Below the pieces are notes generated by a model. The model worked only from the letters and a program-made list of their open reading frames with translations. It had not been told where the DNA came from and made no database searches. This document shows positions 1 to 15,214 of a stretch of 15,633 nt of DNA, in pieces. The stretch is from a virus: UHGV virus genome UHGV-2095518. The stretch is one strand, 5' to 3'. Position numbers and translations under genes: made by a program. Within the stretch, counting starts at the first letter, position 1, and each line of letters opens with the position of its first letter.

Positions 1-211
1 CACCTCTCGCAGCCTTGCGCTTATCTTCTTTAATCTTGAAATAAAGGTTTGTCAGGTACGTCAGCAGGCCAAATACCAGACTACCCAGCACACCGATTGC
101 AGCCCACTGTGACGGAGTTACTCTATCGAGCAACTGTAAAAACCAGTAGCCAGCACTGCCTGCGGAGGTGCCGTAGGCAATGCCTGTTGAAATTTTGTCC
201 ATGGATTTCAT
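1..211 (-). CDS. S: Class II holin (pinholin), phage 21 S-type; partial, last codon(s) and stop lie beyond the window start
   Basis: Hand translation of the minus strand from ATG at 209-211 gives [70 protein letters not shown], which matches my recollection of the phage 21 S holin. It has the Met1-Lys-Ser-Met4 dual-start arrangement and a GGAGGTGAGG Shine-Dalgarno just upstream. It is not in the ORF track because no stop falls inside the window. Confidence 0.75.
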
Positions 212-462
212 AGCCTCACCTCCGCACGGAACGGATGGCATAGTTATTATGTGTAGGCTTTCAGACACATCAATCAGAGCCTTAATTGATATATATGCTG
301 GAGACGATGCAATATAAAAAGCTCGCCGTAGCGAGCTAATATAATGTATTTCTCTGATATTATGTTTATTTGTATTAGCTCAGACTTGACATCACAGGTT
401 TCGTATATAGAACATCATCAAATCTGTCAGTTTGCTATGAATGAGATATAGTAATTGAAGAG

Positions 463-858
463 CTAACCTCGCATGTCAAAGCCAGATTTCTGAAAATCTC
501 TGTAGACTTCCGGATTGTTGAAGGCCGGAAATTTGGCTTTATGAGCTGCGGACTTTATCGCTTCGCAATAGGCTTTATCACCGTTACTGGTAGATATTTT
601 TAACGCCGTGCCATCCTGAGAGAATTCCATATGCAACCTGCATTTTTTCCCTTTCCAGTTATGCGGCTCATCAAGTTTGGCATTAATTGCAGCTCTGATT
701 CCCCGCGCTTGCGCCCCCCATTCATCCTGATCATCCCAGCGTCCTGAACTGCAACTACCTGTAGCAGTAGTTTTGTGGCAATCTGAAGGGTGTAAAGGTG
801 TGCATCCCGCAACAAAACCGACCCAAAAAGTCAACATAACGATTTTCTTTAATCCCAC
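463..858 (-). CDS. Lipoprotein with a divergent TolA domain III-like mature domain
   Basis: 131-aa ORF with a GTG start preceded by GAGGA. Signal peptide with lipobox VAGC (MGLKKIVMLTFWVGFVAGC). The mature part (IRAAINAKL...GKKCRLHMEFSQDGTALKISTSNGDKAYCEAIKSAAHKAKFPAF..PEVYRDFQ) follows the pattern of the E. coli TolA C-terminal domain, including the conserved Cys pair. Paralogous to the 1009..1437 gene. Confidence 0.6.
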   Translation of the reverse strand: MGLKKIVMLTFWVGFVAGCTPLHPSDCHKTTATGSCSSGRWDDQDEWGAQARGIRAAINAKLDEPHNWKGKKCRLHMEFSQDGTALKISTSNGDKAYCEAIKSAAHKAKFPAFNNPEVYRDFQKSGFDMRG

Positions 859-1008
859 TTCTTGCTCCTCAATCCATTAAAATCTCAGCAATAGTAGTTG
901 TTACGTCCGCCACTGGCTCAGAGCTGACTATCCGCTAAATTTAGCTCAGTGCCGTAGCTGTGTCAGAACAAACCTAAGCCGAAACCGTTTATTACAAAAC
1001 AATAAATA

Positions 1009-1437
1009 TCAGGGTTTAAAATCCAGCACCCCATTTTGAAATACTTTATATACTTCCGGCGAAGGGGGGGCAGGTATATCAGCATTCTTTATCGCATTCA
1101 TCGCTTCACGACATAAATCGAGGTCTCCACTTTCTCTTTTAACCTCCAGTAGAAGGCCATTCGGGGCCATATGCATTCTCAGTGTACACTCTTTTCCTGA
1201 ATACTTACTCGCATCCCCGAACTGTTTTTCGATGGCGCTCTTGATTTGATGGGCATACAGACGGATATCCTCACTAACATCAGAAGTACGTTCAGATGAA
1301 CTCACATACTGTGTCTCTATTGCTTTATCGGAGTAATATGATGTACGGTCATGATAATTTGTCGATACAGCATCAGTGCACCCGATAATAATCCCACTAA
1401 TAATCAACGTAAGAATTGATGCGCTACGAAAACCCAT
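1009..1437 (-). CDS. Lipoprotein carrying a TolA domain III-like C-terminal domain
   Basis: 142-aa ORF with ATG start and GAGGAAAA Shine-Dalgarno. Signal peptide with lipobox-like IIGC. The C-terminal ~85 aa (HQIKSAIEKQFGDASKYSGKECTLRMHMAPNGLLLEVKRESGDLDLCREAMNAIKNADIPAPPSPEVYKVFQNGVLDFKP) closely parallel the TolA C-terminus as I remember it (..GQIKSAIESKFYDASSYAGKTCTLRIKLAPDGMLLDIKPEGGDPALCQAALAAAKLAKIPKPPSQAVYEVFKNAPLDFKP). Confidence 0.7.
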   Translation of the reverse strand: MGFRSASILTLIISGIIIGCTDAVSTNYHDRTSYYSDKAIETQYVSSSERTSDVSEDIRLYAHQIKSAIEKQFGDASKYSGKECTLRMHMAPNGLLLEVKRESGDLDLCREAMNAIKNADIPAPPSPEVYKVFQNGVLDFKP

Positions 1438-1466
1438 TTTTCCTCACATATGTCATATAGTAAAGG

Positions 1467-1496
1467 ATTATATATACCGTTGTTTTGGACGCTCAA
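1467..1496 (-). promoter_or_regulatory. Candidate sigma70 promoter for the 1009..1437 lipoprotein gene
   Basis: On the minus strand TTGAGC (-35) is followed after ~16-18 nt by TATATAAT (-10), about 30-40 nt upstream of the start codon in an AT-rich intergenic region. Confidence 0.3.
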
Positions 1497-2025
1497 ACAG
1501 CGAATCAGATCAAATAAAACGCACATTTGTTAACATTTACACAAAGTCTGCGTGGGATATTCTGAAAGAATATCCATAATGTGGAGAGAATCTATTGAAG
1601 TGCATGGTGCCGGGTGCCTCCCGGTGAACAAAATGTTCGTGATACCTGTCGGCGACAGAAAAGGTTAATGGTATCACCCCACCGCACAGGGGGATTCACC
1701 ATGCAGGAGTTTTCTTAGCAAACTCACTGCGCGCCCGGCAACTCCCAACCACATAAAATGCGGAGTTTGTGGTATTTATGCATATAACTCGCAGGAATTA
1801 TCTTAAAAAACTGATGTCGATCCGGATTAAAAAGAAGCAGGTCATCATCAGATGACTGGAAAAAAGGAAAACAAAAAATACTCATCATACAGTTTTGATT
1901 GCAGGGATGAGCCTGCTATGCACAATATGCAGAATATAAGCAAGATAAAAATATGCAGGCATATTATTTCGGGTTTTGTTATTAACACAACCTTTTTAAT
2001 AATCATTTGGCATACAATAAACCAG

Positions 2026-2055
2026 CCCAAAAAGAACCGCCTAAACAGGCGGTTG
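2026..2055 (-). terminator. Rho-independent terminator-like hairpin
   Basis: Stem AACCGCC / GGCGGTT with a 6-nt loop; on the minus strand it is followed by CTTTTTGGG. Confidence 0.35.
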
Positions 2056-2371
2056 GTCAATACAAAGGATGCTTCGTCTTTATTATAGTAATCTGAGGCG
2101 TCGGGTGTCTTGTATCAGACAACATATTGTCCCGCTAAACAGCGAATTACAAACCACCCTGCAATGATCTCTCATCTCATTTTATATGAGTTGACGACAT
2201 CAGGATAACGCATCATCAGCCCCTGCCAAGAAATATCAAAACTCCCGCCAGCAATGTGTTATCACAATATTGTAAAAAAAACACAGCACCGAAACTATAA
2301 CTGGTCTCTGTTATAATTTGGAGCAGAAAGACCAGTTGCCCAACTAGCAGCATTCTCCCCTGCTTTCCTGA

Positions 2372-2400
2372 CGTAAAAAAACCGCATTAAGCGGTTTTTT
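2372..2400. terminator. Bidirectional rho-independent terminator (tR'-like) just downstream of the Q-like gene
   Basis: AAAAAAACCGC-ATTAA-GCGGTTTTTTT: a GC stem flanked by an A-run on one side and a T-run on the other, about 90 bp past the stop of the 2482..3024 gene. Confidence 0.6.
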
Positions 2401-2481
2401 TACGATGTCCATGTCTGCAATCCGCCTCGCGATACAGCTTTGCGAAGCATAGCAAAATTGAAGCAGTTTATACGTAAGAAA

Positions 2482-3024
2482 TCAAGCCATTTTCTCAGCA
2501 AATGATTCACGCATGGGAATATATAGGGCATACTCAGCAACAGCTAACCAATTAGCAATCCGTTTTTCGCATGTGCTAAAACACCACTCTGGGTGTGCAT
2601 CATTTAGCAATTCAGCCATTTTGCGCTTAGTCATCCCCCGCCCTTCATAGCGTTGCCGGAGAATGCAAATCAATCCTGGATGCTCTGCCAGCACCTCACT
2701 TATGACTCGATCAATACATAACGCCTCTGCATCAGTACAATGCGCCAGCCAGCTCTTTTGCTTGCCGTTGATCATCTCTCGCAAAAACGCTTCCAGCTCA
2801 GCTTTCTCTATTCCCGCTTTTTTCATTCTGCGCAGGGCTTCATTAATGGCTGTTTTCGTCAGTTTTTTGGATGCCAACAACTGATTGAACATATTCCCTG
2901 ACCTGCCACCGCCAATATACGACCAGCGCCCCCACATACGTAGTTTTCCCTGAATCCAGACACTTTCCAGCGTGGTGAGGCGAAGGTGTTCTCCGCTTTT
3001 TCCTGTATTCGTTGGGTAAATCAT
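2482..3024 (-). CDS. Putative late-gene antiterminator (Q-like)
   Basis: 180-aa ORF whose start overlaps the upstream gene stop by 4 nt. The N-terminal LRMWGRWSY motif resembles the RWGAW motif of small Q antiterminators such as DLP12 QuuD. It sits directly upstream of a strong terminator and, further on, a holin. Confidence 0.5.
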   Translation of the reverse strand: MIYPTNTGKSGEHLRLTTLESVWIQGKLRMWGRWSYIGGGRSGNMFNQLLASKKLTKTAINEALRRMKKAGIEKAELEAFLREMINGKQKSWLAHCTDAEALCIDRVISEVLAEHPGLICILRQRYEGRGMTKRKMAELLNDAHPEWCFSTCEKRIANWLAVAEYALYIPMRESFAEKMA

Positions 3025-3311
3025 AAATGACCTTTCTTTCTCCAGATTTCTTGTGTGCGAAAAACCCCTTCAGCATGCATCAGGCGCAATTCTTCTTTGG
3101 TGTAATCGCTGGTTTTTACCCGCCCGTCGATTAGATCGTGGCATGAGCTACAGGCTATCGCCGCCTGCATATCGTGTGGTTTTGTCGCTGTTCCGCACGT
3201 CCCCGCCAGCCTGTAATGCGCCAGCACAGAGGTTTCGGGATTGTGATTGCAGTAGCCAGGGATTCTGATCTGGCACATCTGGCCTTTAGCCGCTTTACGT
3301 AAATTCACCAT
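3021..3311 (-). CDS. YbcO-like (DUF1364) Cys-rich putative nuclease
   Basis: 96-aa protein MVNLRKAAKGQMCQIRIPGYCNHNPETSVLAHYRLAGTCGTATKPHDMQAAIACSSCHD... matches my recollection of E. coli DLP12 YbcO in length, Cys spacing and several motifs (LRKAA, CQ.RIPG.CN.NPETSVLAH.RL.G.CGT.TKP, IACS.CHD). Translationally coupled to both neighbours. Confidence 0.6.
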   Translation of the reverse strand: MVNLRKAAKGQMCQIRIPGYCNHNPETSVLAHYRLAGTCGTATKPHDMQAAIACSSCHDLIDGRVKTSDYTKEELRLMHAEGVFRTQEIWRKKGHL

Positions 3312-3910
3312 TACGCAAACTCCAGTAGTTGTGCGGCCACATTTTCAACTTCCTCCTGAGAGGAGAATTTACGGAACAGAATCCAGTTCCACAGCACATT
3401 CAGTACAGATTTATAAACCTGCTGAAACTCGACTTCGTCCATATTCGCAAAAGCGATGGATTTTGCCCGACGCCCACGGCTACCGTCCGGATAAATATGC
3501 TCGGTGTAAAATCCGGCCTGAATGGTTACCCACTCGCGGAAAGCCTCAAACGACTTTAGCAACGCCGTATCCCGGGTTCTACGAGTCGCAACGGTGTTAA
3601 GGTATTGCTCTGCGGCATCACTCAGGGCTGGCGTGTGTTCCCGACCAACTGATTCGCACAGGTAATCAACGAAACCAGACAGCAGTTCTCGTTCGCGAGG
3701 CGTGATCGCCCCACCGACCGGAGTCCAGTAATCGAATCCCAGTTGCAGGAGTTTGAAAAAACGCTTGTGGAATGCGTAGTTACGCACACGCTTAAAGTCT
3801 GCGTGTATCCACTCACCTATTTTGATTTGATGCAGAAAATCGCAACTCTCCGGCGTCGCCGGGAGAAGTAAACCAGAAGAAGTTTGTTTGACCAGTTGTA
3901 TATGCGCCAT
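3311..3910 (-). CDS. Lambdoid nin-region protein (DUF1367-like), function unknown
   Basis: 199-aa ORF lying immediately upstream of the YbcO-like and Q-like genes, overlapping the YbcO-like start by 1 nt. The call rests on position and size; the family assignment is from memory. Confidence 0.45.
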   Translation of the reverse strand: MAHIQLVKQTSSGLLLPATPESCDFLHQIKIGEWIHADFKRVRNYAFHKRFFKLLQLGFDYWTPVGGAITPRERELLSGFVDYLCESVGREHTPALSDAAEQYLNTVATRRTRDTALLKSFEAFREWVTIQAGFYTEHIYPDGSRGRRAKSIAFANMDEVEFQQVYKSVLNVLWNWILFRKFSSQEEVENVAAQLLEFA

Positions 3911-4361
3911 TTCTCAATCTCTCGATGGCGCAGTGCAGCAGATGCCAGTTGTTCAGGCTGACGTATAAAGTATAAATAAACTGGTTCCAGTGTAAAGCCC
4001 CCACCTTAATGGAATAAAAACCAAACAACAGATTGCTGGGATACAAACAACGCTTATTATTAAAAGCGGTTAAACAAATTAAATTTTAATGTTATGCAAA
4101 TTTGTCAGATCACCATAATATCTCATTTGAAAACCGCTGAAATAACAGCCCTATCAGGGTTAATCATATTAAGGTGAGTAAATATGGAAAACAACAAATC
4201 TGTACATTACGTTCCTTTTTTATCTGTAATACTTTTTGTTTTATGCTGTGCGTGGGCATTATTTTTATAAAAATATTTACAGATGAAGTAAACCCGCCAA
4301 TCAGGTTAACTGTGGCTGCGTTGAGGATGCATAATACATCAGAGGTTGCGGGGATTTCTCC

Positions 4362-5701
4362 CATAAGCGCTAACTTAAGGGTTGTGGTATTACGCCTGAT
4401 ATGATTTAACGTGCCGATGAATTACTCTCACGATAACTGGTCAGCAATTCTGGCCCATATTGGTAAGCCCGAAGAACTGGATACTTCGGCACGTAATGCC
4501 GGGGCTCTAACCCGCCGCCGCGAAATTCGTGATGCTGCAACTCTGCTACGTCTGGGGCTGGCTTACGGCCCCGGGGGGATGTCATTACGTGAAGTCACTG
4601 CATGGGCTCAGCTCCATGACGTTGCAACATTATCTGACGTGGCTCTCCTGAAGCGGCTGCGGAATGCCGCCGACTGGTTTGGCATACTTGCCGCACAAAC
4701 ACTTGCTGTACGCGCCGCAGTTACGGGTTGTACAAGCGGAAAGAGATTGCGTCTTGTCGATGGAACAGCAATCAGTGCGCCCGGGGGCGGCAGCGCTGAA
4801 TGGCGACTACATATGGGATATGATCCTCATACCTGTCAGTTCACTGATTTTGAGCTAACCGACAGCAGAGACGCTGAACGGCTGGACCGATTTGCGCAAA
4901 CGGCAGACGAGATACGCATTGCTGACCGGGGATTCGGTTCGCGTCCCGAATGTATCCGCTCACTTGCTTTTGGAGAAGCTGATTATATCGTCCGGGTTCA
5001 CTGGCGAGGATTGCGCTGGTTAACTGCAGAAGGAATGCGCTTTGACATGATGGGTTTTCTGCGCGGGCTGGATTGCGGTAAGAACGGTGAAACCACTGTA
5101 ATGATAGGCAATTCAGGTAATAAAAAAGCCGGAGCTCCCTTTCCGGCACGTCTCATTGCCGTATCACTTCCTCCCGAAAAAGCATTAATCAGTAAAACCC
5201 GACTGCTCAGCGAGAATCGTCGAAAAGGACGAGTAGTTCAGGCGGAAACGCTGGAAGCAGCGGGCCATGTGCTATTGCTAACATCATTACCGGAAGATGA
5301 ATATTCAGCAGAGCAAGTGGCTGATTGTTACCGTCTGCGATGGCAAATTGAACTGGCTTTTAAGCGGCTCAAAAGTTTGCTGCACCTGGATGCTTTGCGT
5401 GCAAAGGAACCTGAACTCGCGAAAGCGTGGATATTTGCTAATCTACTCGCCGCATTTTTAATTGACGACATAATCCAGCCATCGCTGGATTTCCCCCCCA
5501 GAAGTGCCGGATCCGAAAAGAAGAACTAACTCGTTGTGGAGAATAACAAAAATGGTCATCTGGAGCTTACAGGTGGCCATTCGTGGGACAGTATCCCTGA
5601 CAGCCTACAAAACGCAATTGAAGAACGCGAGGCATCGTCTTAACGAGGCACCGAGGCGTCGCATTCTTCAGATGGTTCAACCCTTAAGTTAGCGCTTATG
5701 G
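4362..5701 (+). mobile_element. IS186-like insertion sequence (IS4 family)
   Basis: Terminal inverted repeats CATAAGCGCTAACTTAAGGGTTG at 4362-4384 and its reverse complement ending at 5701 enclose a single transposase gene. The flanking 12 bp are also inverted-symmetric (GGGGATTTCTCC on the left, GGAGAGATCCCC on the right), so the exact ends are uncertain by about 12 bp. Confidence 0.8.
4417..5529 (+). CDS. insL: IS186 transposase
   Basis: The ORF translates MNYSHDNWSAILAHIGKPEELDTSARNAGALTRRREIRDAATLLRLGLAY..., recognised as the IS186 transposase. The ORF track opens at a GTG at 4411; the ATG at 4417 is the more likely start. Confidence 0.85.
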   Translation: MNYSHDNWSAILAHIGKPEELDTSARNAGALTRRREIRDAATLLRLGLAYGPGGMSLREVTAWAQLHDVATLSDVALLKRLRNAADWFGILAAQTLAVRAAVTGCTSGKRLRLVDGTAISAPGGGSAEWRLHMGYDPHTCQFTDFELTDSRDAERLDRFAQTADEIRIADRGFGSRPECIRSLAFGEADYIVRVHWRGLRWLTAEGMRFDMMGFLRGLDCGKNGETTVMIGNSGNKKAGAPFPARLIAVSLPPEKALISKTRLLSENRRKGRVVQAETLEAAGHVLLLTSLPEDEYSAEQVADCYRLRWQIELAFKRLKSLLHLDALRAKEPELAKAWIFANLLAAFLIDDIIQPSLDFPPRSAGSEKKN

Positions 5702-5758
5702 GAGAGATCCCCGCCACTCTTCGTGTGTCAGGTATCCTCAATGCACCCTTTCCTCTCC

Positions 5759-5784: not shown

Positions 5785-5804
5785 TAAAATACAAGGGATG
5801 ACTC

Positions 5805-6314
5805 TTAATCCCAATCAATCCAGTTGTAGACGATACGAAGTGACGGGCGCACAGCAGCAGTCACATCTTCGGTACTAAAGTCGATTGCATCACTGTAGAT
5901 TTTGCAGTCCAACATTTCAATTGTTGTAGCAGCTTTTGTCACAGCGTTAACCCCGGAAGATTTGGATTCAGGGGTAGCAGCCATCGTGATATCAACATAG
6001 TCTTTCTCTGCAATGCGATCCTTAATGAACTGAAGAATATCGCCTTCGATAGTCTCCACGCACTGGACCTGGATTTCCCCAGAGTTTCGAATTGGACCGT
6101 GCTGGTTGAACTTCACACCATTCGGACCATAGTCCTCCACATCCTCGCGGGTCATTTCAGGAATTTGCGATGTGCGAACCGGTACGCTGATATCTTCATG
6201 GCCTGCAAAAGTGAGCTGGAATTCAGAAGATACCAGTCGTTCGCCTTTGGCCGCGTTGGCAGTATAGCGGCCCTTAATAAATTTACGGTTTCCCTTAGTG
6301 TTATTGTGCCCCAT
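5805..6314 (-). CDS. Hypothetical virion protein, last gene of the structural operon (possible tail tube or tail-associated)
   Basis: 169-aa ORF with an AAAAGGA Shine-Dalgarno, 11 bp after the upstream gene, in an operon with a sheath-like gene. No family recognised by eye. Confidence 0.4.
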   Translation of the reverse strand: MGHNNTKGNRKFIKGRYTANAAKGERLVSSEFQLTFAGHEDISVPVRTSQIPEMTREDVEDYGPNGVKFNQHGPIRNSGEIQVQCVETIEGDILQFIKDRIAEKDYVDITMAATPESKSSGVNAVTKAATTIEMLDCKIYSDAIDFSTEDVTAAVRPSLRIVYNWIDWD

Positions 6315-6325
6315 ATAAAATCCTT

Positions 6326-6907
6326 TTACTGGAACGCCCGAACAATATCGGAGCTGTTATATATCGAAGAACCGGTCAACTGGAGGTTGACGGTGTTTTT
6401 CAGGAAATGCCCATTACTATCCCTGGGGGCATCGAGATCGAAACTAAGGTCCTGGATAGCGACATCAATGATGTTGATCCGGCGACCAATGTTTAGCGTC
6501 ACACGCTCCGGGATTCGACCACCAATACTAGCGTCTTTAAGTTCCGGGCTAATCATTGCTGACAACGCGGCGATAGCACCTGAAACTTCCGTATATGGGT
6601 TAAACAAAGCAATGAAAGTTACTGGCAGCGTGAAAGTCGGCGGTGTCCCCCCTTCCCAAACCATTAAGCTGTTCCAACGGGCAACTGACGTTGTTTCAGT
6701 ACCAACCTGCGCAAAACCACTGAAGGCACCAGCAACAGAACCCATAGACATACCGGTAAACGGCGCTTCCCAATTCTGGGCCAGATTCATTGCCGCCCCC
6801 TGGCTGATATATCCGGTAACCTGGTACTGAGAGTTCGTTAAAGTAACTTTCAGAAATGGCGATACACCGTCAGCCTGGCTGTAAACCCCAAAAGGTATAG
6901 GTGCCAT
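6326..6907 (-). CDS. Hypothetical virion protein (size fits a tail tube protein)
   Basis: 193-aa ORF in the same operon, Gly/Ser/Thr-rich. The function is inferred only from context. Confidence 0.4.
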   Translation of the reverse strand: MAPIPFGVYSQADGVSPFLKVTLTNSQYQVTGYISQGAAMNLAQNWEAPFTGMSMGSVAGAFSGFAQVGTETTSVARWNSLMVWEGGTPPTFTLPVTFIALFNPYTEVSGAIAALSAMISPELKDASIGGRIPERVTLNIGRRINIIDVAIQDLSFDLDAPRDSNGHFLKNTVNLQLTGSSIYNSSDIVRAFQ

Positions 6908-6942
6908 TCAAGTTAAAGGCCGGAGTTCTCCGGCATCCTCCT

Positions 6943-7758
6943 TTAGCCGAGGCGCTTACGGCGCAGTTTCATTGACTTTTTGCGGGCCAGTTTTGCCGCG
7001 CCGGTCTGGGCTTTACGACGCGCTTTTTTCAGCGCCGATTTTTGAGCCGCAGTCAGACGTTTTTTACGCAGACGTTTACGGATGAGCTTGATCTCACCGT
7101 TACGAACAACCTTCTTAAATGCTTCAGTCAGCATTTCATCAGAAGTGCCAGCAACAACAAACGCCGCTTCCAGTTCGTCGCGGTCGTCGCTATCCAAACC
7201 AGCGATAGCGGAACCAACATCAGCAGCTGCGTCGTCGTCTTCATCGTCGGTCAATGCTTCGATCAGGTCATCATCTACACCGCATGCTGCGAGGAAGTCA
7301 GCAACATTTGCCCATGCTTCGTTATAGGCATCGTCCTGTTCTTCTGTAACTTCGGTATCGTCGTCGTCAGAGATACCAGCGATAGCCTGAACGAAACCAT
7401 CAAGGGAGTCGAAAGTCAGATCACCGCTATCAGCCCAGGCGAAAACGGCATCGGCCGCATTACTCAACGCATTCTGCATAGCACTTCGATTTGCAGCTTC
7501 CAGAATCATCTTGTGCGCCTGTTCGACGGTCCATTCTTTACCTTCTTTTCCTTCCAGGATTTGCTCAGGTGCCGGGTCAGATTGAACGTTCTCGTTAATC
7601 TGTGCCGCCGGTTCCGGATTATTATTAATCACCGGTTCGGTTGGCGGTTGGGCACTTACACGGGCAGATTCCATCAACTGCACCGGATCAGCGTTCAAAG
7701 CGAAACGGGACAGTCCATTCCCCAAAAATGCCCCGGATTGAAAAAAGTTTTTGCTCAT
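6943..7758 (-). CDS. Acidic protein with a poly-basic C-terminal tail, function unknown
   Basis: 271-aa ORF with an AAGGGA Shine-Dalgarno, starting 10 bp after the sheath-like gene. The centre is extremely D/E-rich (..SDDDDTEVTEEQDD.., ..TDDEDDDAAAD.., ..DSDDRDELE..) and the last ~50 aa are K/R-rich (KLIRKRLRKKRLTAAQKSALKKARRKAQTGAAKLARKKSMKLRRKRLG). Confidence 0.5.
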   Translation of the reverse strand: MSKNFFQSGAFLGNGLSRFALNADPVQLMESARVSAQPPTEPVINNNPEPAAQINENVQSDPAPEQILEGKEGKEWTVEQAHKMILEAANRSAMQNALSNAADAVFAWADSGDLTFDSLDGFVQAIAGISDDDDTEVTEEQDDAYNEAWANVADFLAACGVDDDLIEALTDDEDDDAAADVGSAIAGLDSDDRDELEAAFVVAGTSDEMLTEAFKKVVRNGEIKLIRKRLRKKRLTAAQKSALKKARRKAQTGAAKLARKKSMKLRRKRLG

Positions 7759-7767
7759 TGTATTCCC

Positions 7768-9357
7768 TTACTTAATAAGCAGCGGTACGCCATGGATACG
7801 ACGGGCTACGCCAGTCGGGCAGCAGGCCCAGACTACTTCCCATTTATCGAATTCCGCCTGCGTAACTTTCAGCACATACGGTTCTGTACCGTCAGCATCA
7901 GGATCACGAGGAGCCACCAGAGCGCCGGAGGCGACAAAGCGATCTAAAAGTTTGGTCATCCCTTTAGTCAGGCCAGCCGCAGTAATACCGTCCGGGCTAT
8001 GCTTCATCTGTCGGGCTAACTGGACAAAGAAACGGCTGATTGCATTCATCAGGGATGGGACGTGCTGGAAGTGCAGATAGTTATCCTGCGTGCAGCAAGT
8101 TAAAGCATCGTCGATGATCATCTGGCCAGAGGTGCCAACAGATACTTTATTGAGACGGCCCTTGACCATTGCTTCTTCGTCCGGGGTATCTTCCGGATAC
8201 AGCGGTTGAATTGACGCACGAGCAATGACGGCACGTTCTTCACCAGCCGGTGAGTAATGCCAACCGCCGACATCAGAGTTTTTCTTGACGCCACGAGCTT
8301 TCGCCGCATACGCCGCGCCAGACAGACCGAAGACCACACGGGATTGGGTCCATTTGTCTTTGCAGGAGAACGGGAAGTGATAGACAGCACAGCTTACATA
8401 ATCGGTACCAAGTAAACCGGTATCTTCAACAGCAGAGATCGCTTCCGTGTACGTCAATGTCGGTTTGACATCAAAGAAGCCATCAATCAGGCGATCTGCA
8501 CAGATTTTACCTAATGCGGTGATAGCCGCATTGTCATAGCAGCCCAAGCCAAGAACAGCGGTGTACATGTACGGCGCATTGTTCAGCACTTTCACCGCAC
8601 GCAGGTACGCAGCGGTTGAGATTTTCGACTGATCACCGTTGGTACCACCAGTGAACGCCAACGATTTTTTGTTTGTTACTTTCGCTGTAGAAATCAGATC
8701 TTCATTAACAACCGCGCGCAGATATTTAGAACGGGCTTCCAGAGCCGTAGGCAGATAACACAAGCGGCCCATGTCATCTTTCGCTTCTTCCACCAAAGAC
8801 ACAGTGTGTGTCTCCAGGGTCGTTACCACACCGAGCGAAGTCGTCTGGGTTAGTTTTAAGAGGAAGCGTTCATTACCCGCGCTGTCCGCTGTTGCCGTTT
8901 CGATGGTTAACTCACGGGTAGGTGAAATACACGGATCACCATCATCAACGTAGATAGCAAAGGCTTCGCCGCTATCAAGTTCAATTTCAGAACCATATGG
9001 CAACGCAGTGTAAGCCGGTTCGCCTGATTCATCGAACATAATAATCGGGAACTTCGCATCATCCGGAACAGCACGGACAACATAACCAGACGTTTGCTGA
9101 ATAGCTTCGTACACATGGCGAATTGGTTCGAACTGTGAGCCGGAAGACGGCTTCAGCGGTTCGCCGAGAACATCTTCGTAATTGGACTCAGTAACCGCAA
9201 GAACAGTAAACGGCTTGCCACGCGCAAATACGCCAATACCAGCCCACAAGCTGCTATTTAATGCAACACCGGTAGATAACGTCGCATCGGCATTGATCGG
9301 GCTAACCGCGACGCCGGATGCATTACCTAATGACTGTTGAATTGAATATTGAGACAT
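7768..9357 (-). CDS. Contractile-tail sheath protein (putative)
   Basis: 529-aa ORF with an AGGGAAAG Shine-Dalgarno. It contains a GGWHYSPAGEERA segment resembling the W.SPAG..RG motif I recall from T4 gp18 and P2 FI, and has a sheath-like C-terminal region; the size and operon context also fit. Confidence 0.55.
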   Translation of the reverse strand: MSQYSIQQSLGNASGVAVSPINADATLSTGVALNSSLWAGIGVFARGKPFTVLAVTESNYEDVLGEPLKPSSGSQFEPIRHVYEAIQQTSGYVVRAVPDDAKFPIIMFDESGEPAYTALPYGSEIELDSGEAFAIYVDDGDPCISPTRELTIETATADSAGNERFLLKLTQTTSLGVVTTLETHTVSLVEEAKDDMGRLCYLPTALEARSKYLRAVVNEDLISTAKVTNKKSLAFTGGTNGDQSKISTAAYLRAVKVLNNAPYMYTAVLGLGCYDNAAITALGKICADRLIDGFFDVKPTLTYTEAISAVEDTGLLGTDYVSCAVYHFPFSCKDKWTQSRVVFGLSGAAYAAKARGVKKNSDVGGWHYSPAGEERAVIARASIQPLYPEDTPDEEAMVKGRLNKVSVGTSGQMIIDDALTCCTQDNYLHFQHVPSLMNAISRFFVQLARQMKHSPDGITAAGLTKGMTKLLDRFVASGALVAPRDPDADGTEPYVLKVTQAEFDKWEVVWACCPTGVARRIHGVPLLIK

Positions 9358-9417
9358 AACTTTCCCTGTTATGCGCCCCGCACGGGGGCGCTATGTTAAA
9401 CGGAGAACTTCCCCTGA

Positions 9418-10125
9418 TTACTCAGAGTCACCGGCATCAATCGTGTCGCCGCTTATAAAGTTAAGCCCGCCTTTTTTGGCCATTGTCAGCGTTACACGAG
9501 TGAAGTAATCAGCGCCGTTGCGTGGGTGCATATCGTTGATAGCCGAACCCCACAGTGTGGTACGGTTGACCAGCGCCGGAGTGGTCGGATGCTGGAACGG
9601 GATAGCCGGGACAGCATCACCAGTCACGAAGCCTGCTTTACCCGGATTTTCATCACGGACGTAGCACAGCACATCCATCGAGCTGAACTGAATGTTCTCT
9701 GTCGTTAAGTTCTTACAAATACCAGCAGGTACTTCGTACACTTTTACGTTACCGAACAGGGTACCGATGTAGTGAACATACGGAGTCTGGATATAGTCTT
9801 CGGCTGGCTGGAAGAAATCCTTCGGCAACTGTTTGAAGAAAGATGCTGCATCAGCACCAGCAAACATCCCCATCGCACCAGAAGATTTAACGCGCTCAAT
9901 AATGTCGCGATATACAGTCTGGAATTTTCCACGAATGATGGTTGCCCATACATCAAAGGACTGGTTAACCGGCAGAGCGATGTCAAAGGTGTCGGTCGCA
10001 AGAGTGCGCCAGATCATGATGCGAAGACGCAGCATATCCTGTTCATGAGACAGGTATTCCTTCAGGGTGCGGAACTGTAGGGAACCCAGGTCCAGACCAA
10101 ATTCACGCTGTGCTTCATACGCCGC
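9418..10125 (-). CDS. C-terminal part of a capsid-like ORF, in frame with and immediately downstream of the TAG at 10126-10128
   Basis: The reading frame stays open from the TAG through AAYEAQREFGLDLGSLQFRTLKEYLSHEQDMLRLR... to the stop at 9418. The first ATG (10033-10035) has no convincing Shine-Dalgarno, so this looks like a continuation of the upstream frame rather than an independent gene. Confidence 0.45.
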   Translation of the reverse strand, partial: AAYEAQREFGLDLGSLQFRTLKEYLSHEQDMLRLRIMIWRTLATDTFDIALPVNQSFDVWATIIRGKFQTVYRDIIERVKSSGAMGMFAGADAASFFKQLPKDFFQPAEDYIQTPYVHYIGTLFGNVKVYEVPAGICKNLTTENIQFSSMDVLCYVRDENPGKAGFVTGDAVPAIPFQHPTTPALVNRTTLWGSAINDMHPRNGADYFTRVTLTMAKKGGLNFISGDTIDAGDSE

Positions 10126-11124
10126 CTATACCGTGTGCTCAGCCGCGATAACGAACTGACTTGGGAACAGGGTGTATTTCTTCATTTCGTGGTTGATCAG
10201 CGGGATCAGCTCAGGAGCGGCTTCAATATTGATTTCCGTCTCAATTGCGATCTCAGTGCCTTTATCCGGCGCTTTGGAGAACGACAGGGCAATCTGACCA
10301 ATGTTGTAGTTCAGAGAGCAGGTAACAGTGATTTGCTCACCAGCAGCATTAGTAAACGAGTGAAGTAGGCTGCCGGAACCGTTATCAACAACAGACTTAA
10401 TACGGTTAACGTAGATGTTAGTGCGACCTTTTCGGATTGGTACATTCTGGCCTTCGAAGTCTTCCATCTTGAAGGTTGCGGTTTTGCTGGTGCCATCGGA
10501 GCTTGCCACCAGCACATAGCGGCGGCGTAACTGGCTGTACACACCGACGGATTGCATGTCCAGAACATCACCAGCAGCATAAGAACCAAAAGAGGAACCT
10601 GCCACGTTAAAGACTTCATAGATGTCGGACTGGTCACGCGTAACCGGAATGAAGGTACACGCATCAGCGGTAGCTGCCCCCAACTGAACAGGCAGGATCA
10701 TCGCGAGGAATAAAGGCAGACGCATAACACCGTCAGAAACGCTCATCATCTCTGCTGCGACGGATTCCAGCATCGCTTTATTAGTGGCATCCATGCTATT
10801 GCGGGTGGACTCAATCAGGCAGTTTTCCAGCGTCTGGTGGCAGGAGGCCAGAATTTCCGGACGCGGCATAGATTTATGTGCTGCGGCGTAGTCAGCCAGT
10901 GCACTTGCCCACGCGGTAGCAATTTGAGCGGTGGCATTATCAGAGATACCCGCAAAAATTGGGTCTTTACGTGCAGCTTCAAGGATAGATGCGGCACGCG
11001 CGGCATCATCTTTGATGAATTGGTTATCAGTACCGAACTGTGCTGTACTTGCCCAGCCAAGAACGGCTTTAGAGCGTTTTGCGATATCTGCAATACGATT
11101 CTGGTATTCGCGTAAGTTACTCAA
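10126..11124 (-). CDS. N-terminal part of a putative major capsid protein precursor (about 568 aa if the TAG at 10126-10128 is read through)
   Basis: Probable TTG start at 11122-11124, 6 nt after AAGGAAG; the ORF track opens at an upstream TTG at 11145. The frame ends in TAG after ...AAEHTV. It is the first gene of the virion operon, immediately downstream of parB/parS, which is where I recall P1 placing its major head gene; the combined size of about 62 kDa also fits. Confidence 0.45.
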   Translation of the reverse strand: MSNLREYQNRIADIAKRSKAVLGWASTAQFGTDNQFIKDDAARAASILEAARKDPIFAGISDNATAQIATAWASALADYAAAHKSMPRPEILASCHQTLENCLIESTRNSMDATNKAMLESVAAEMMSVSDGVMRLPLFLAMILPVQLGAATADACTFIPVTRDQSDIYEVFNVAGSSFGSYAAGDVLDMQSVGVYSQLRRRYVLVASSDGTSKTATFKMEDFEGQNVPIRKGRTNIYVNRIKSVVDNGSGSLLHSFTNAAGEQITVTCSLNYNIGQIALSFSKAPDKGTEIAIETEINIEAAPELIPLINHEMKKYTLFPSQFVIAAEHTV

Positions 11125-11145
11125 GTTACTCTTCCTTAAACACAA

Positions 11146-11388
11146 GGCACTTGTGTGAATCCCTTTTCGGAAGAGATTTTATTGAAAGTCACTTGTTGAC
11201 TTTCTCGCGAAAAGTAATTTTTTAAATTTTTTGTGCGGGGAAGTGGACGGTGAATGCAGGCGTTAAATTGTGGGAATTTCAGTCTGAAACCCCCCTAAAA
11301 AACACATGCAAATCACAAGGTTAGCAATGAAATCGGTGCGGGACATTTTAGGAAGGGGAGGGGCTAACACCACCTCCCACCAGCGGGA
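11146..11388. promoter_or_regulatory. parS-like partition site region, probably also carrying the promoter of the virion operon
   Basis: Intergenic segment directly downstream of parB, the position of parS in P1-family plasmids. It contains an 8-5-8 palindrome GAAAGTCA-CTTGT-TGACTTTC (11184-11204), a TGAAATCGGTG motif (11327-11337) resembling the P1 box A/box B arrangement, TGAAT/ATTCA heptamer-like repeats and an AT-rich tract. Confidence 0.45.
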
Positions 11389-12354
11389 TTATTCCCCAGC
11401 AGACATTTTCCCAATGATTTTTTTTATTGCTTCGTCAATTTCAGTTTGCACTTCAGACGGGAGTCTGGAGAACTCGTAGGCGACAACCCGTTTTTTCGGA
11501 TCGGACTTCTTTCGAGCATATTGGCGACGGTCAGAGAAGTCTCGCAGCTTCTCAACCACCACAGATTTAACCGGCGCGGGCTTCAGGCTTTTGCTTTCCG
11601 CTTTGAAGATAGCCAGTATCTTCGCTTTATCCTCTTTCGCGCCCTCAGTCTCTGCAATTCGCTCGCGCACCGTATCAACCAGATCTCCAATCGGTACGTT
11701 TTTGGCGTTAGCATCTTCGGAGATCTGGAGCAGCAACTGGTAATCAGGCAGGGCGAGATCGCTGGCAACAGGGAAGACAGCAATCATCTCATCCGGCACC
11801 GCCGCAGCCTGGAAAGCTCGCGTCACTTTAGCCTTTGAGATGTTCTCAGCTCGGGCGATCTCTTCTTTGGTCATATTCTTGCCGTACATAACCTCGAAGC
11901 GTTTACCCAGCTCGCGCAGAGTGTGTTCGCGGGCTGTCTGGATATCAATGGCCAGCTGGCGGGCATCCGCCAGGCTGATCTCATCTTTCGTCACCAGAAT
12001 CTCAAATTTCGTTTCATTGAAGATACACGCAGCGCGGCGACGTGATCCGTCCAATACCTCAATGCGCTCCCCAACCATACGACCGATAGCCGGGAAGAAC
12101 TGTTGCAATTTAATGGTGCGGGAAATATCGCTTACCGACTCAGGGGTGAGCAGAGACTGATCGCGGCCGTTAACTGCCGGGTCAACGAACGTGCGCGACT
12201 CAATCTCACCACTCAGCACAACGGTAAGCAAAAATTTAGCCTGGCGACCAGATTTTAGGGTAAAGGTTTTGGTGCCTTCACTGCCTTCAAGCATGCGAGC
12301 AAACTCGGAGCTATTCTTGCCCAGCACTCGTCCACGGGAAACTATTTTTTTCAT
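11389..12354 (-). CDS. parB: ParB centromere-binding partition protein (type Ia)
   Basis: 321-aa ORF with the ParB GSRRRAA motif (LDGSRRRAACIF) and an HTH region, translationally coupled to parA (4-nt overlap). The overall pattern is P1/P7 ParB-like but clearly divergent from the P1 ParB I recall. Confidence 0.85.
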   Translation of the reverse strand: MKKIVSRGRVLGKNSSEFARMLEGSEGTKTFTLKSGRQAKFLLTVVLSGEIESRTFVDPAVNGRDQSLLTPESVSDISRTIKLQQFFPAIGRMVGERIEVLDGSRRRAACIFNETKFEILVTKDEISLADARQLAIDIQTAREHTLRELGKRFEVMYGKNMTKEEIARAENISKAKVTRAFQAAAVPDEMIAVFPVASDLALPDYQLLLQISEDANAKNVPIGDLVDTVRERIAETEGAKEDKAKILAIFKAESKSLKPAPVKSVVVEKLRDFSDRRQYARKKSDPKKRVVAYEFSRLPSEVQTEIDEAIKKIIGKMSAGE

Positions 12355-13562
12355 GCCGCCTCACCCCTAACAAACTCAATTCGATCAAACACAGCCTTAG
12401 TGAAACGCTCGGCCTCGGTTCGTGCCTTCTTCAGCGCCTCTGCACTGCCTGGATACGATTGCGGGTTGGCACTGATTACGGTGTCGAAAGACTCGCCGCA
12501 TCGCTCAAAGCCATCCAGACGAGGCAGAGAAGAGTCCAGAATGTTGCTGGCGTAAACCTCACGCGCAAGGCTGTGTGATGTCTCGTGATCGCGCTTGCCG
12601 GTCATCTTCGACATAAAACCAATGCTGGCGCTCAAACGCGGTTCTACGCCTTCCTCCTCCAGTTGCTCCAGCATTTCTGGCAGACGGGTGAGATATTTCA
12701 GTGTTGAGTGGAAGTCAACCTGGGCTGGTGGGGTAGGGGTAAGCAGCAAATCGCTGGCCGCCAGACCGTTGAGCAGGAACGGATCCAGGTGTGGACCGGT
12801 ATCAATAAAGATAAAGTCATAATCATCCGCAACACGATCAATGATATTGCGTCGAAGGATTTCGTACTGATTTTGTCCGGGAAGATGCTCTTCAACCAGC
12901 TCTTTCCATTGGCTGGCAACAAAGCCATCGTCGATAGAGGCTGGAATCACGTCTACGCCAGGAACGATGGTCGGACGAATCACCTCTTTGCGTAGCGTCT
13001 CCGCGTCCAGGTCGTTCAGCATCGCCTGCGCGGCGGTTTCCAGGATGGAACCAATACTGTGAGTATGGTCGAGGAACATTGTGCTGGATGCCTGAGGGTC
13101 AAGGTCAATTACCAGAATGCGCAGATCGTGACGCAGTAAATCCTGATGCACACGCAGAGCGTGCGCCAACGTTACTGTGGAAACCGTTTTGGATACGCCA
13201 CCCTTCAGGTTTACGACAAAAATAACGTAAGGCGATTTGTGAATGTCGCGATATTTGGGGATCTTACGGTGGGCATAGATATCAATGACGTTCTGGATGG
13301 TCAGCGCGTACTGTTCAACGTTACCGACCTGTTTCTTGTTGAACTGGTACCCATCATCTTCCATCTCTTTGATGGCCTGCTCCACAATGCGGCGGCTCAG
13401 CTTCGGCAACTTTGCCACAGCGTTACGAGTGAACGTCTGATAATACTCGGTCTGATTGAACTCTTTACGCTGATCTTCAATATCCTGACTCATGGCCTTA
13501 AGTAATGCGCTTGCACGAAGAGCTATGGTGCCGACACCGCCGTAATCGCGTTTCATCATCAT
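12351..13562 (-). CDS. parA: ParA partition ATPase (type Ia, with N-terminal DNA-binding extension)
   Basis: 403-aa ORF with the deviant Walker A motif NLKGGVSKTVSTV and a conserved C-terminal region (RLDGFERCGESFDTVISANP..AVFDRIEF) as in P1 ParA. The ~100-aa N-terminal extension is typical of autoregulatory type Ia ParA. Confidence 0.9.
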   Translation of the reverse strand: MMMKRDYGGVGTIALRASALLKAMSQDIEDQRKEFNQTEYYQTFTRNAVAKLPKLSRRIVEQAIKEMEDDGYQFNKKQVGNVEQYALTIQNVIDIYAHRKIPKYRDIHKSPYVIFVVNLKGGVSKTVSTVTLAHALRVHQDLLRHDLRILVIDLDPQASSTMFLDHTHSIGSILETAAQAMLNDLDAETLRKEVIRPTIVPGVDVIPASIDDGFVASQWKELVEEHLPGQNQYEILRRNIIDRVADDYDFIFIDTGPHLDPFLLNGLAASDLLLTPTPPAQVDFHSTLKYLTRLPEMLEQLEEEGVEPRLSASIGFMSKMTGKRDHETSHSLAREVYASNILDSSLPRLDGFERCGESFDTVISANPQSYPGSAEALKKARTEAERFTKAVFDRIEFVRGEAA

Positions 13563-13665
13563 CTCCTTATCATTTAGTATGAGTGAATTGTACGTTTGAT
13601 TCTGCTACGTGCAACTTTTTTTGATTCGTGCGCCAATTATTGCACGTAAAGAAATGGCGATGAGG
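13563..13665 (-). promoter_or_regulatory. parAB promoter/operator region
   Basis: Immediately upstream of parA: a large inverted repeat CTACGTGCAA (13604-13613) ... TTGCACGTAA (13639-13648) around an AT-rich centre, as expected for the ParA autoregulatory operator. Confidence 0.5.
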
Positions 13666-13950
13666 TTATTAGATGTGTGCTGGAGGGATGATGCAGGACC
13701 AGAATGTGCGATAGAGGGAAGTCGCATTGAATTATGTGCTGTGGAGGGATCGCTGGTATCAAATATGTGTGCTGGAGGGAAAGATAGAAGATTAGATGTG
13801 CGCTGGAGGGAAACTTGGATGGTTAGATGTGTGCTGGAGGGAATGTCTGGGCAAACTGCGTGGCGCAACCCTCCAGCGCACACCAAAAACAGGAAAATGG
13901 GCAGGCATTCCCGGCAGCGCACATTTTTCAAATGCAGCTGCCCTCCAGCA
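13666..13950. repeat. incA iteron array (about nine 19-bp RepA-binding repeats in both orientations)
   Basis: Repeats of GATGTGTGCTGGAGGGA and variants at about 13666, 13698, 13726, 13758, 13789 and 13820 in one orientation, and CCCTCCAGCGCACAC-type copies at about 13861, 13900 and 13935 in the other, directly downstream of repA. This is the P1 incA copy-control arrangement. Confidence 0.85.
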
Positions 13951-13955
13951 CACAC

Positions 13956-14816: not shown

Positions 14817-14871
14817 ATTGCTTTTTCCGAATTATGTGGATAGTTTTTATCAGTGATGATAACTACCCTGG

Positions 14872-14977
14872 CTTTCCCGTCAGCACACATCCTATATCCC
14901 GCCAGCACACATTAGCAACCCGTCAGCACACATTTTTTTCCCTCCAGCGCACATCGTTTTCCCTCCAGCACACATCG
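14872..14977. repeat. incC iterons (five 19-bp repeats) within oriR, overlapping the repA promoter
   Basis: Five direct copies of ..CC(C/G)(T/C)CAGC(A/G)CACAT.. at about 14872, 14897, 14918, 14938 and 14959, immediately upstream of the repA start. Confidence 0.85.
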
Positions 14978-14989
14978 CGAAAGGCTTCT

Positions 14990-15100
14990 AAGCCAGACGG
15001 GACGCGGCCTACGACGATCAGGGATCTATATGGATCTAATTGGGATCTGTATGGACCTGATTATTGGATCTATCCAGTGGATAATGTGGATAAGTGAAAA
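14990..15100. promoter_or_regulatory. oriR core: GATC-containing heptamer repeats and tandem DnaA boxes
   Basis: Five GATC sites (15016, 15023, 15033, 15044, 15067) within repeated GGATCT motifs, followed by DnaA boxes AGTGGATAA (15076-15084) and TGTGGATAA (15085-15093). A further DnaA-box-like TGTGGATAG lies at 14835-14843 on the repA side. Confidence 0.7.
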
Positions 15101-15121
15101 AACCGGCCAACGTAGCCGGTT
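15093..15121 (-). terminator. Rho-independent terminator shielding oriR from incoming minus-strand transcription
   Basis: AACCGGC-CAACGTA-GCCGGTT hairpin; on the minus strand it is followed by TTTTCAC. Confidence 0.4.
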
Positions 15122-15135
15122 GGAAGGGAGTCGTA

Positions 15136-15214
15136 TTATTCTACGCTTTCGATGAGAAGACCATGTTCATAGCATTTAAGCTCATCGCCCTCGTACAGGA
15201 ATTGGTATCCAATT
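15136..15214 (-). pseudogene. 3' remnant of a gene truncated by the IS3-family insertion
   Basis: The minus-strand frame reads ...[25 protein letters not shown] then TAA (15136-15138), followed by the terminator hairpin. The frame is cut off at 15214/15215 where the IS end begins. Confidence 0.3.

Follow-up and report, generated by a model that had tools for sequence, protein, structure and literature searches.

The interval between the late antiterminator gene Q and the holin gene S of lambdoid phages has long been recognized as a place in which accessory genes are carried, as has the more general concept of the "moron", and Rac-type phages are already known to carry toxin genes there. Shiga toxin (Stx) is the best-known cargo of this interval; its stx1 genes also have a promoter of their own, and nmpC of DLP12 and lc of PA-2 are further examples of genes that reside between Q and S. 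In the Salmonella prophage Gifsy-1, the short RNA IsrK is transcribed from a promoter immediately 3' of antQ, a Q-like gene, and stops at an intrinsic terminator past which part of the transcription continues into the downstream genes; the AntQ protein interferes with termination, and reporter fusions have documented transcription from the IsrK promoter into those genes (PMC4825925). Here we examine a Q-holin interval in the virus genome UHGV-2095518, from which a stretch of 15,633 nucleotides (the window) was analyzed. The minus-strand block 250-2423 of this window is best explained as a whole, with a probability that we put at roughly three in four, as accessory cargo carried between Q and the lysis cassette of a Rac-family prophage and expressed by the mechanism proposed below. 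In principle, such an architecture is nothing new. What is new is the cargo, a pair of common lipoproteins that mimic TolA and are, as far as we could find, undescribed.

Judged by its matches, the window from 1 to 4400 is the late-control/lysis junction of a Rac-family lambdoid prophage. Its identity is 100% with the chromosome of E. coli CUVET20-1667 and 99.9% with those of SE11 and many other strains, and 439 of 5426 complete E. coli genomes hold at least 80% of it. The identical chromosomal copies sit in a full-size Rac-family lambdoid prophage, with racC, kilR, sieB, ydaS/T-type regulators and replication genes on one flank and the holin, endolysin, lysis protein, trkG, terminase and capsid genes on the other. 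Q, cargo and holin genes are all encoded on the minus strand. The first of these (2482..3024) specifies a 180-amino-acid (aa) late antiterminator of the DUF1133/AntQ type, which matches Pfam DUF1133 with 356 bits, Phage_antitermQ with 26.1 bits (cut-off, 26) and the PHROG family 753, "anti-termination protein Q-like", with 267 bits, and which is 84% identical to a Salmonella prophage Q encoded directly upstream of a true isrK. The Q-like antiterminator named in an earlier note on this DNA is thereby confirmed, and all of the other features that it named were likewise recovered to within a few bases, all of them on the minus strand.

Homology to other phages stops abruptly at both ends of the block 250..2423: phages with the same Q match the window only down to 2423, and phages with the same holin only up to ~238-249. 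Between these sharp borders the relatives differ widely. We compared 107 loci encoding this Q family, of which 27 came from reference genomes and 80 from viral contigs, by measuring the interval in each locus from the stop codon of Q to the first holin; the viral-contig loci are the best 80 of at least 597 hits, and cluster sizes among them over-represent window-like sequences and are not population frequencies. The Q-holin distance ranges from 204 to 2275 bp across the family and reaches 4.8 kb where insertion sequence (IS) elements have been inserted. It can be 204, 590, 643, 914 or 1003 bp in distant relatives (55-64% Q identity) and is 2272 bp in the interval type represented by the window, where the terminator-to-holin distance of ~2.16 kb agrees with the ~2.2 kb given in the earlier note. 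Phages with a Q at least 94% identical to that of the window carry at least seven other fillings, among them a 189-aa open reading frame (ORF) in an interval of 1141 bp, tRNA-Thr plus tRNA-Gly in ~1255-1298 bp, a 247-aa ORF in ~1150 bp, other ORFs in 2235 bp, and tRNAs plus a TciA-like gene in ~1750 bp. Phage vB_EcoS-683R6 (Q with 94% aa identity, S-type holin) has just two tRNA genes in the place of the lipoprotein genes, and in vB_EcoS-673R7 a single hypothetical gene takes that place; TciA is found in the interval of a Klebsiella phage, and Rac-SA53, with a Q that is 76% identical, carries the pertussis-like toxin genes eplBA. Relatives of the window carry tRNA-Thr/Gly or tRNA-Ile/Arg in the interval, and a search of the window with ARAGORN detected no tRNA gene or remnant.

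The lipoprotein cassette also occurs apart from this Q. Phage mEp460_ev081 and the E. coli strains CRE444 and ACN002 carry an identical cassette behind an unrelated 273-aa Q, where it comes after tRNA-Ile, tRNA-Arg and a DUF3927 gene, and the cassette (window 250-1500) is present at 99% identity or more in 774 of the 5426 E. coli genomes (~14%), more than carry this Q. On account of these occurrences, and of the short or otherwise filled intervals in relatives, the lipoprotein genes are evidently neither core genes nor linked to lysis. The earlier note had taken them for morons, and the short intervals, the swapped fillings and the cassette behind an unrelated Q all support that reading; what is found in the close relatives is the opposite of a set of conserved core lysis genes at the same site. 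The interval is a mosaic of at least three modules, one of which is a known small RNA (sRNA) gene, and the overall pattern suggests that modules have been exchanged at conserved borders rather than inserted in a single event.

The upstream gene of the cassette (1009..1437, minus strand) encodes a lipoprotein of 142 aa, which we refer to as TolA1 and in which a signal peptide with the lipobox IIGC is joined through a linker to a copy of TolA domain III (TolAIII). The second gene (463..858, minus strand), read from a GTG codon at 858, encodes a lipoprotein of 131 aa, TolA2, whose lipobox is VAGC and whose linker leads to a diverged TolA domain III. Neither ORF is disrupted, and each has a good Shine-Dalgarno site and a lipobox, in agreement with the two lipoprotein genes of the earlier note; the respective N-termini, MGFRSASILTLIISGIIIG and MGLKKIVMLTFWVGFVAG, each lead to the lipobox cysteine (C), and the motif is kept in a diverged copy of the region in E. 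coli M6 and in plasmid homologues. The Pfam TolA model is matched with 82.6 bits by TolA1 and 54.6 bits by TolA2, but in both cases only the last ~90 positions of full-length TolA models (~265-387) are involved, and the score of TolA1 against NF007065 (107.8) is under the cut-off of 213. A sequence search of the PDB with TolA1 returned the TolAIII chains 1S62, 3QDP and 1TOL with E values of ~1e-27. Over its C-terminal 88 residues, TolA1 shares ~60% identity with residues 334-421 of E. coli TolA, as counted from the alignment, and TolA2 is ~28% identical to TolA. The AlphaFold model of TolA2 has block-mean pLDDT values of 81-96 from about residue 41, with low confidence for the first 37 residues (signal peptide and linker), and superimposes on the TolAIII structure 3QDP with a target-normalised TM-score of 0.93 and a root-mean-square deviation of 1.0 A.

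Several residues of known importance in TolA are retained. TolA1 keeps K379, K396, D418 and K420 as well as the cysteine pair, and TolA2 keeps the disulphide cysteines and D418. In TolA itself, K379 and K396 contact colicin A (PMC3365938), and a proline at D418 or K420 abolishes the binding of TolB, colicin N and the filamentous-phage protein g3p (PMC4339652). The ratios of nonsynonymous to synonymous substitution rates (dN/dS), which are 0.26 when TolA1 is compared with its M6 copy and 0.12-0.13 when TolA2 is compared with the plasmid homologues, indicate that both genes are under purifying selection. The most likely start of TolA2 is the GTG at 858 rather than the internal ATG chosen by RefSeq, given the good Shine-Dalgarno site, the charged N-terminus and the presence of an ATG at that position in the plasmid homologues; the RefSeq start strips the charged N-terminus from the signal peptide. 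Neither protein has the membrane anchor or the helical domain II of TolA. They are for that reason to be regarded as something other than TolA orthologues, and the names that RefSeq applies to them ("tolA", "cell envelope integrity protein TolA") are misleading. In several genomes (L003 13009-13269, L010 5260-5520 and L011 5260-5520) PGAP/RefSeq flags TolA1 as a pseudogene ("tolA, missing N-terminus"). The same 429-nt gene is annotated as intact in SE11 and ACN002, and the ORF is open in the window, which is 100% identical to CUVET20-1667 there; the flag would seem to have arisen merely because the gene was compared with full-length TolA. The phage members of the family make up PHROG family 5772, whose function is listed as unknown.

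The two genes appear to form a transcription unit of their own. A candidate promoter, TTGAGC-18-TATAAT (1467..1496, minus strand; 10 of 12 consensus positions), lies 30 nt upstream of the ATG at 1437, and M6 keeps its -35 hexamer and has one change in the -10. The unit is closed by an intrinsic terminator at 320..337 on the minus strand (7-bp stem with five G-C pairs, followed by a T-run), which has a folding free energy (dG) of -13.6 and a z-score of -4.75. This terminator, the third of three on the coding strand, was overlooked in the earlier inventory of the interval. With it, the lipoprotein unit would have the self-contained promoter-genes-terminator form of a classical moron. Beyond another promoter-like site at 273-246, the holin gene starts at 211, as had been proposed, and runs off the window after its first 70 codons (1..211, minus strand). 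It encodes an S21-type class II holin (Pfam Phage_holin_2_1, 121 bits) with the dual-start N-terminus MKSM, and in the identical prophages it is annotated as EssD and is followed by RrrD (the partner endolysin) and a lysis protein.

Upstream of the lipoprotein unit lies a gene for an STnc100-family prophage sRNA (1548..1734, minus strand), which matches Rfam RF02076 over the full length of the model with 86.6 bits (gathering threshold, 47; E 2.5e-18); the 3' hairpin is present, and the U-tract of the consensus is missing. The earlier note had described the DNA of the interval as AT-rich, which is borne out by a G+C content of 0.36-0.45 (versus 0.46-0.51 over Q and the genes upstream of it), but it had overlooked this gene at 1734-1548 within that DNA. 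STnc100, a known prophage sRNA family related to PasD (bioRxiv 10.64898/2026.05.13.724894), is better conserved against M6 than any other segment compared (97.3%). Members of the family lie 75 nt downstream of stx2B in Stx2 phages (PMC12370729), and window 1674-1715 matches DNA just 3' of stx1B in many Stx1 phages, H-19B among them. A Klebsiella spallanzanii relative has a Q-holin interval of 590 bp, of which STnc100 is the sole identified content. In view of the Stx-phage neighbours and of this short Klebsiella interval, STnc100 appears to be a resident of the interval to which cargo has been added on either side, with stx on the Q side and the lipoprotein genes on the holin side. In its minimal form the interval would then appear to run from Q through a short, terminated leader and an STnc100-type sRNA gene to the holin. 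The M6 prophage (L122) has three STnc100-family copies in its Q-holin interval (2143-2350, 2401-2605 and 3327-3500), one of them upstream and two downstream of a lone TolA1 gene, and four tRNA genes as well.

No annotated gene lies beneath the segment of ~640 bp between the first terminator and STnc100 (2372-1735) in any of the records listed. A protein-coding gene there was considered and rejected, since the small ORFs give at most one marginal PHROG match (E 0.006). One of them, a hydrophobic 45-aa ORF on the minus strand (2216..2353), is probably not a gene: it has no family hit, and for 2353-2216 we found no match in Pfam-independent libraries, no annotation in the records listed and no diverged copy. 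Its identification as the counterpart of Gifsy-1 orf45 was also rejected as a coincidence of length; the Salmonella relative has a C4 antisense RNA match after isrK. Further along, a promoter-like site was found by a sequence scan (AAGACA-18-TATAAT, 2111-2082, 10 of 12 positions) ~30 nt upstream of a second terminator-like hairpin, the two together spanning 2026..2111 on the minus strand. The segment 2111-2026 is possibly a short RNA unit of ~50 nt, although it matches no Rfam family. The diverged copy in M6 is 91.8% identical over 2110-2026 and 60.8% identical over 2025-1800; most of 2372-1735 therefore looks like spacer, with perhaps the one short RNA unit in it.

The DNA next to Q contrasts with the variable block. 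Over the ~60 bases that directly follow the Q stop codon there is hardly any variation among the relatives whose Q is at least 87% identical, and identity drops abruptly after ~2423. This conserved block (2424..2485, minus strand) contains a putative late promoter, with TTGATT at 2485-2480 and TTCAAT at 2462-2457 separated by a 17-nt spacer; its -35 hexamer overlaps the Q stop codon, as does that of the TTGACT-18-TATATT pair before isrK in the Salmonella locus L019. Between the putative promoter and the terminator, folding predicts a leader stem-loop on the minus strand (2448-2424, GCUUCGC...GCGAGGC), which could be part of a Q-loading or pause signal. Distant relatives (L020, L024 and L026-L034) have a different stem-loop in a similar place (GCTCGG...CTGAGC). 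The intrinsic terminator that follows (2372..2400, minus strand) has a 14-bp stem flanked by A- and T-runs and a dG of -19.7 kcal/mol (z -5.8), and none of 200 shuffled sequences folds as well, which upholds the tR'-like terminator of the earlier note. Nearly all of 21 relatives examined, distant ones included, have an intrinsic terminator ~35-115 nt past the Q stop, in a sequence that differs from lineage to lineage, and a tR'-like function is the best reading of 2400-2372.

A transcript that starts near 2450 would give a leader RNA of ~78 nt (2450-2372) with a 5' stem-loop and a terminator, a predicted size like that of IsrK. In the Salmonella relative L019 a true isrK (67 bits) begins 33 nt past the Q stop. 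Membership of the window's leader in the IsrK family (RF01394) was rejected: the match scores 21.6 bits against a gathering threshold of 50, the terminator hairpin supplies most of that score, and unrelated Rfam families score like isrK on the same hairpin. The leader thus would resemble IsrK in position and size only. Right after isrK in L019 (7687-7768), in the place of Gifsy-1 orf45/STnc1160, is a match of 60.8 bits to the C4 antisense RNA family of P1/P7, which lies upstream of a 187-aa ORF in the anrP position. A 5.2-kb contig in a Candidatus Nanosynbacter metagenome bin (L018) encodes residues 1-149 of Q with 100% identity and is almost certainly misbinned E. coli prophage DNA.

Relatives of the lipoproteins are spread well beyond this prophage. 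Because TolA1 is found in only one of 50,697 sequenced phage records, its distribution was taken from bacterial genomes. A TolA2 homologue (88% nucleotide identity) immediately follows the relaxase gene on IncI1, IncK and IncB/O conjugative plasmids (L008 5004-5435 for IncI1/B/O and L009 5005-5400 for IncK), and it is found as well on 92-97-kb plasmids from O157:H7 strains. Taken more widely, the TolA2 family amounts to 370 clusters in Citrobacter, Enterobacter, Serratia, Klebsiella and Raoultella. In Serratia L127 and L128 (5001-7736), a member adjoins GmrSD-like and HEPN-domain genes, a setting typical of defence islands.

The mechanism that we propose for the expression of the cargo takes its cue from this anatomy. 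A constitutive late promoter overlapping the Q stop codon would produce the ~78-nt leader that ends at 2400-2372. Upon induction, Q would render RNA polymerase resistant to termination, such that it reads through the hairpins at 2400-2372, 2054-2026 and 337-320, and the Q-dependent transcript would cross STnc100 and both lipoprotein genes on its way to the holin and the late genes. If there is only one late promoter, the cargo would be transcribed whenever the late genes are. In addition, the lipoprotein unit, with its promoter-like site at 1496-1467, its two genes and its terminator at 337-320, could be expressed from the repressed prophage; expression from its own promoter in lysogens and a boost by Q-dependent read-through, as the earlier note had suggested, both fit the anatomy.

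The products would be outer-membrane lipoproteins in which a flexible linker carries the TolA domain III copy into the periplasm. They are most likely periplasmic decoys for the ligands of TolA. Such a decoy would bind what TolA domain III binds, namely the translocation domains of group A colicins, filamentous-phage g3p and perhaps also the TolB N-terminus, and the lysogen would thereby be protected or its outer membrane would behave differently. Periplasmic TolAIII reportedly gives colicin tolerance, a result that is said to go back to Levengood-Freyermuth and colleagues in 1993. A TolAIII domain sent to the envelope by a signal sequence also promotes the release of periplasmic protein (PMC6195910), an observation that speaks for the decoy and equally for its main rival, considered below. 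Colicin N binds TolA with an affinity of ~1 uM, as compared to ~40 uM for TolB (PMC4339652), and with this difference a modest amount of decoy could trap colicin or g3p without disabling the Tol-Pal system. It is tempting to extend this proposal to TolA1 and TolA2 together with their homologues on IncI/K plasmids and on plasmids of about the size of pO157. All of these might conceivably belong to an unrecognised class of TolA-mimicking immunity factors of mobile elements, lipid-anchored proteins that capture those segments of group A colicins and g3p that bind TolA more tightly than TolB does, and so protect the carrier without a tol defect; we offer this extension as a speculation that is rather less likely to be right than wrong. 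The plasmid copies, being situated by the relaxase gene, could in that case shield pilus-producing cells from the filamentous phages that are specific for their conjugative pili.

A number of observations weigh against this explanation, in whole or in part. The -10 hexamer of the putative late promoter, TTCAAT, is weak in that it has no A at position 2, and it was not reported by the promoter scan. The second hairpin, which the earlier note had put at 2026-2055, is indeed present (2054-2035, eight pairs, with a T-run to ~2026), but it folds only marginally better than chance (z -2.05; 10 of 200 shuffled sequences as good). The promoter proposed there for the lipoprotein genes likewise exists exactly as written, at 1496-1467, but it is a lone match to the consensus, and the region is not enriched for promoter-like sites (14, versus 9.4 +/- 2.5 in shuffled sequences), and a hexamer pair alone is accordingly weak evidence. 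Most of the residues that contact colicin A are lost in TolA2. The TolA2 family would also seem not to be specifically a phage function, as its members in Enterobacter and Serratia are stand-alone chromosomal genes. Literature searches, including one by protein accession, turned up no paper on these lipoproteins, and PADLOC has no model for them and returned no match to them.

The proposal that the lipoproteins are decoys has to be set against the view that they are accessories to lysis, which would be made late with the holin, compete with TolA for TolB, loosen the outer membrane and thereby aid lysis or the release of vesicles. The genes do lie in the late unit directly upstream of the holin, and they are upstream of the holin in every locus inspected; moreover, an envelope-targeted TolAIII with a signal sequence aids the release of periplasmic proteins (PMC6195910), and point mutants of TolA that are unable to bind TolB show the full tol phenotype (PMC4339652). 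There are, however, relatives with the same Q and a closely related holin that do without these genes. The M6 prophage has TolA1 only, parted from a holin of a different class by a sialate O-acetylesterase pseudogene and another gene, and close homologues are found by the relaxase gene of IncI/K plasmids and in chromosomes with no lysis genes nearby. The unit in the window has a promoter-like site and a terminator of its own. We consider a role in lysis unlikely, and rank it below the decoy proposal because of the relatives that have the same Q and a related holin without the genes and because of the homologues that are far from any lysis cassette.

Two further accounts concern the interval as a whole rather than the activity of its products. 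According to one of them, the terminator at 2400-2372 would end only the early Q operon, and the true late promoter would be located further downstream (e.g. near 1496 or at 273-246), with the cargo upstream of that promoter being outside of the Q-controlled unit. The poor -10 of 2485-2457, which the scan did not report, and the promoter-like sites at 1496-1467 and 273-246 are compatible with such an arrangement, as is the sub-threshold isrK match of 21.6 bits, owed mostly to the terminator hairpin. Yet the block after Q is conserved together with Q and everything after it varies, as is to be expected of a Q-utilisation site that co-evolves with Q; the Salmonella relative has a true isrK in this position, and the Gifsy-1 IsrK promoter drives downstream genes (PMC4825925); and the Q-holin gaps of 204-643 bp in some relatives leave no room for another arrangement. 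A late promoter further downstream is thus quite improbable. The other account, that the interval is decaying prophage debris with no current function, we regard as very improbable indeed. It could draw on the PGAP pseudogene mark on TolA1 in several genomes, on the ~640 bp before STnc100 that hold no annotated gene in the records listed and are only 60.8% identical to M6 over 2025-1800, and on the interruption of the prophage by IS421 upstream. The mark, however, reflects comparison with full-length TolA, and the gene is intact in SE11 and ACN002; both ORFs are open and retain their Shine-Dalgarno sites and lipoboxes; the dN/dS values of 0.12-0.26 argue for selection; and the cassette is at least 99% identical in 774 genomes and is carried by the isolated phage mEp460_ev081. 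Accessory cargo under late control therefore stays the preferred explanation of the interval.

The remainder of the window has a different origin. IS421 (transposase ORF 4411-5529) interrupts the prophage upstream of the Q-holin region, and the window changes identity from ~4360. To the right of IS421, 5800-15548 is 99.9% identical to a P1-like phage-plasmid with IS421 at the same spot, the 123-kb plasmid of strain ET665, and the genes of this right-hand part (5800-15633) include those for a tail tube, a PmgG-like protein, a tail sheath, ParB, ParA and RepA. In CUVET20-1667, the same IS421 is followed by hok and further prophage genes and not by a phage-plasmid. With IS421 common to both the prophage and the phage-plasmid contexts, the window would be either an IS421-mediated cointegrate or else an assembly join at the IS. 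The IS421 region is bracketed by an imperfect inverted repeat of 71 nt (4314-4384 and 5678-5748, 82% complementary), which is longer than expected for the terminal repeats of IS186-family elements. Two adjacent minus-strand ORFs of the phage-plasmid part (339 and 205 aa; 9418-10035 and 10126-11145) match the first and last parts of phrog_1014 (567 positions), and, since they correspond to opposite ends of one family, the phrog_1014 gene of the plasmid-phage seems to be in two pieces, owing to a frameshift, a stop codon or a sequencing error.

A Q-holin interval that has been resolved into its parts should help in reading similar regions elsewhere, including those of toxin phages. The cassette itself is common, being present in 774 of 5426 complete E. 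coli genomes, and relatives of one of its proteins are on widespread conjugative plasmids. If it is true that these proteins blunt colicins or filamentous phages, or tune the stability of the outer membrane, they would have an effect on the competition among E. coli in the gut.

Among the described systems, E. coli TolA shares with both window proteins the Pfam TolA domain, the domain III fold and the disulphide cysteines, but TolA1 and TolA2 have a lipoprotein signal peptide instead of the transmembrane domain I and the helical domain II, and without these two domains they would be unable to couple to TolQR. Llp of T5 and Cor of phi80, N15 and the mEp phages are likewise small outer-membrane lipoproteins of phages that act from the periplasmic side on an uptake route (for Llp and FhuA, bioRxiv 10.64898/2026.03.26.714494). 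They have no sequence relationship to the window proteins, which copy a host domain, TolAIII, and would titrate ligands rather than plug a receptor. With the classical morons, such as bor and lom of lambda, gp15 of HK97 and nmpC of DLP12, the lipoprotein unit has in common its small size, a promoter-like site and a terminator of its own, a lower G+C content and its absence from close relatives (the moron concept is reviewed in PMC3594210); the genes and their predicted activity are different.

The closest parallels in overall layout are found in Gifsy-1, in Rac-SA53 and in the Stx phages. The antQ-isrK-orf45-anrP region of Gifsy-1 has an orthologous Q (that of the isrK-bearing Salmonella prophage being 84% identical) and, right after it, a short promoter-proximal RNA with an intrinsic terminator, followed by cargo before the lysis genes (PMC4825925); the corresponding RNA of the window is a predicted one. 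The window differs in that its leader is not an IsrK member, in that it has neither an anti-repressor gene nor a C4-like RNA, and in that its 45-aa ORF shares only length with orf45. Rac-SA53, a type II prophage of enterotoxigenic E. coli that carries eplBA and LT-IIa, belongs to the same phage family, has a Q of the same family (76% aa identity) and bears eplBA in the Q-holin interval, but its cargo and its holin type are different, and its LT-IIa genes come after the endolysin gene and not before the holin. The Stx phages carry stx1 or stx2 between Q/pR'/tR' and the holin S, on the late strand, to be transcribed by Q-modified polymerase upon induction, and they too have an STnc100-family sRNA gene in the interval (PMC12370729). 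The cargo of the window is not a toxin, and its Q is of the DUF1133/AntQ type, with copies of the cassette that have Stx-phage-like neighbours (tRNA-Ile/Arg and a 273-aa Q) being found in other genomes. The slot used by stx, to which the earlier note had assigned the lipoprotein genes, is therefore the same insofar as the Q-holin interval is concerned, but the two kinds of cargo occupy opposite sides of STnc100, stx being on its Q side and the lipoprotein genes on its holin side.

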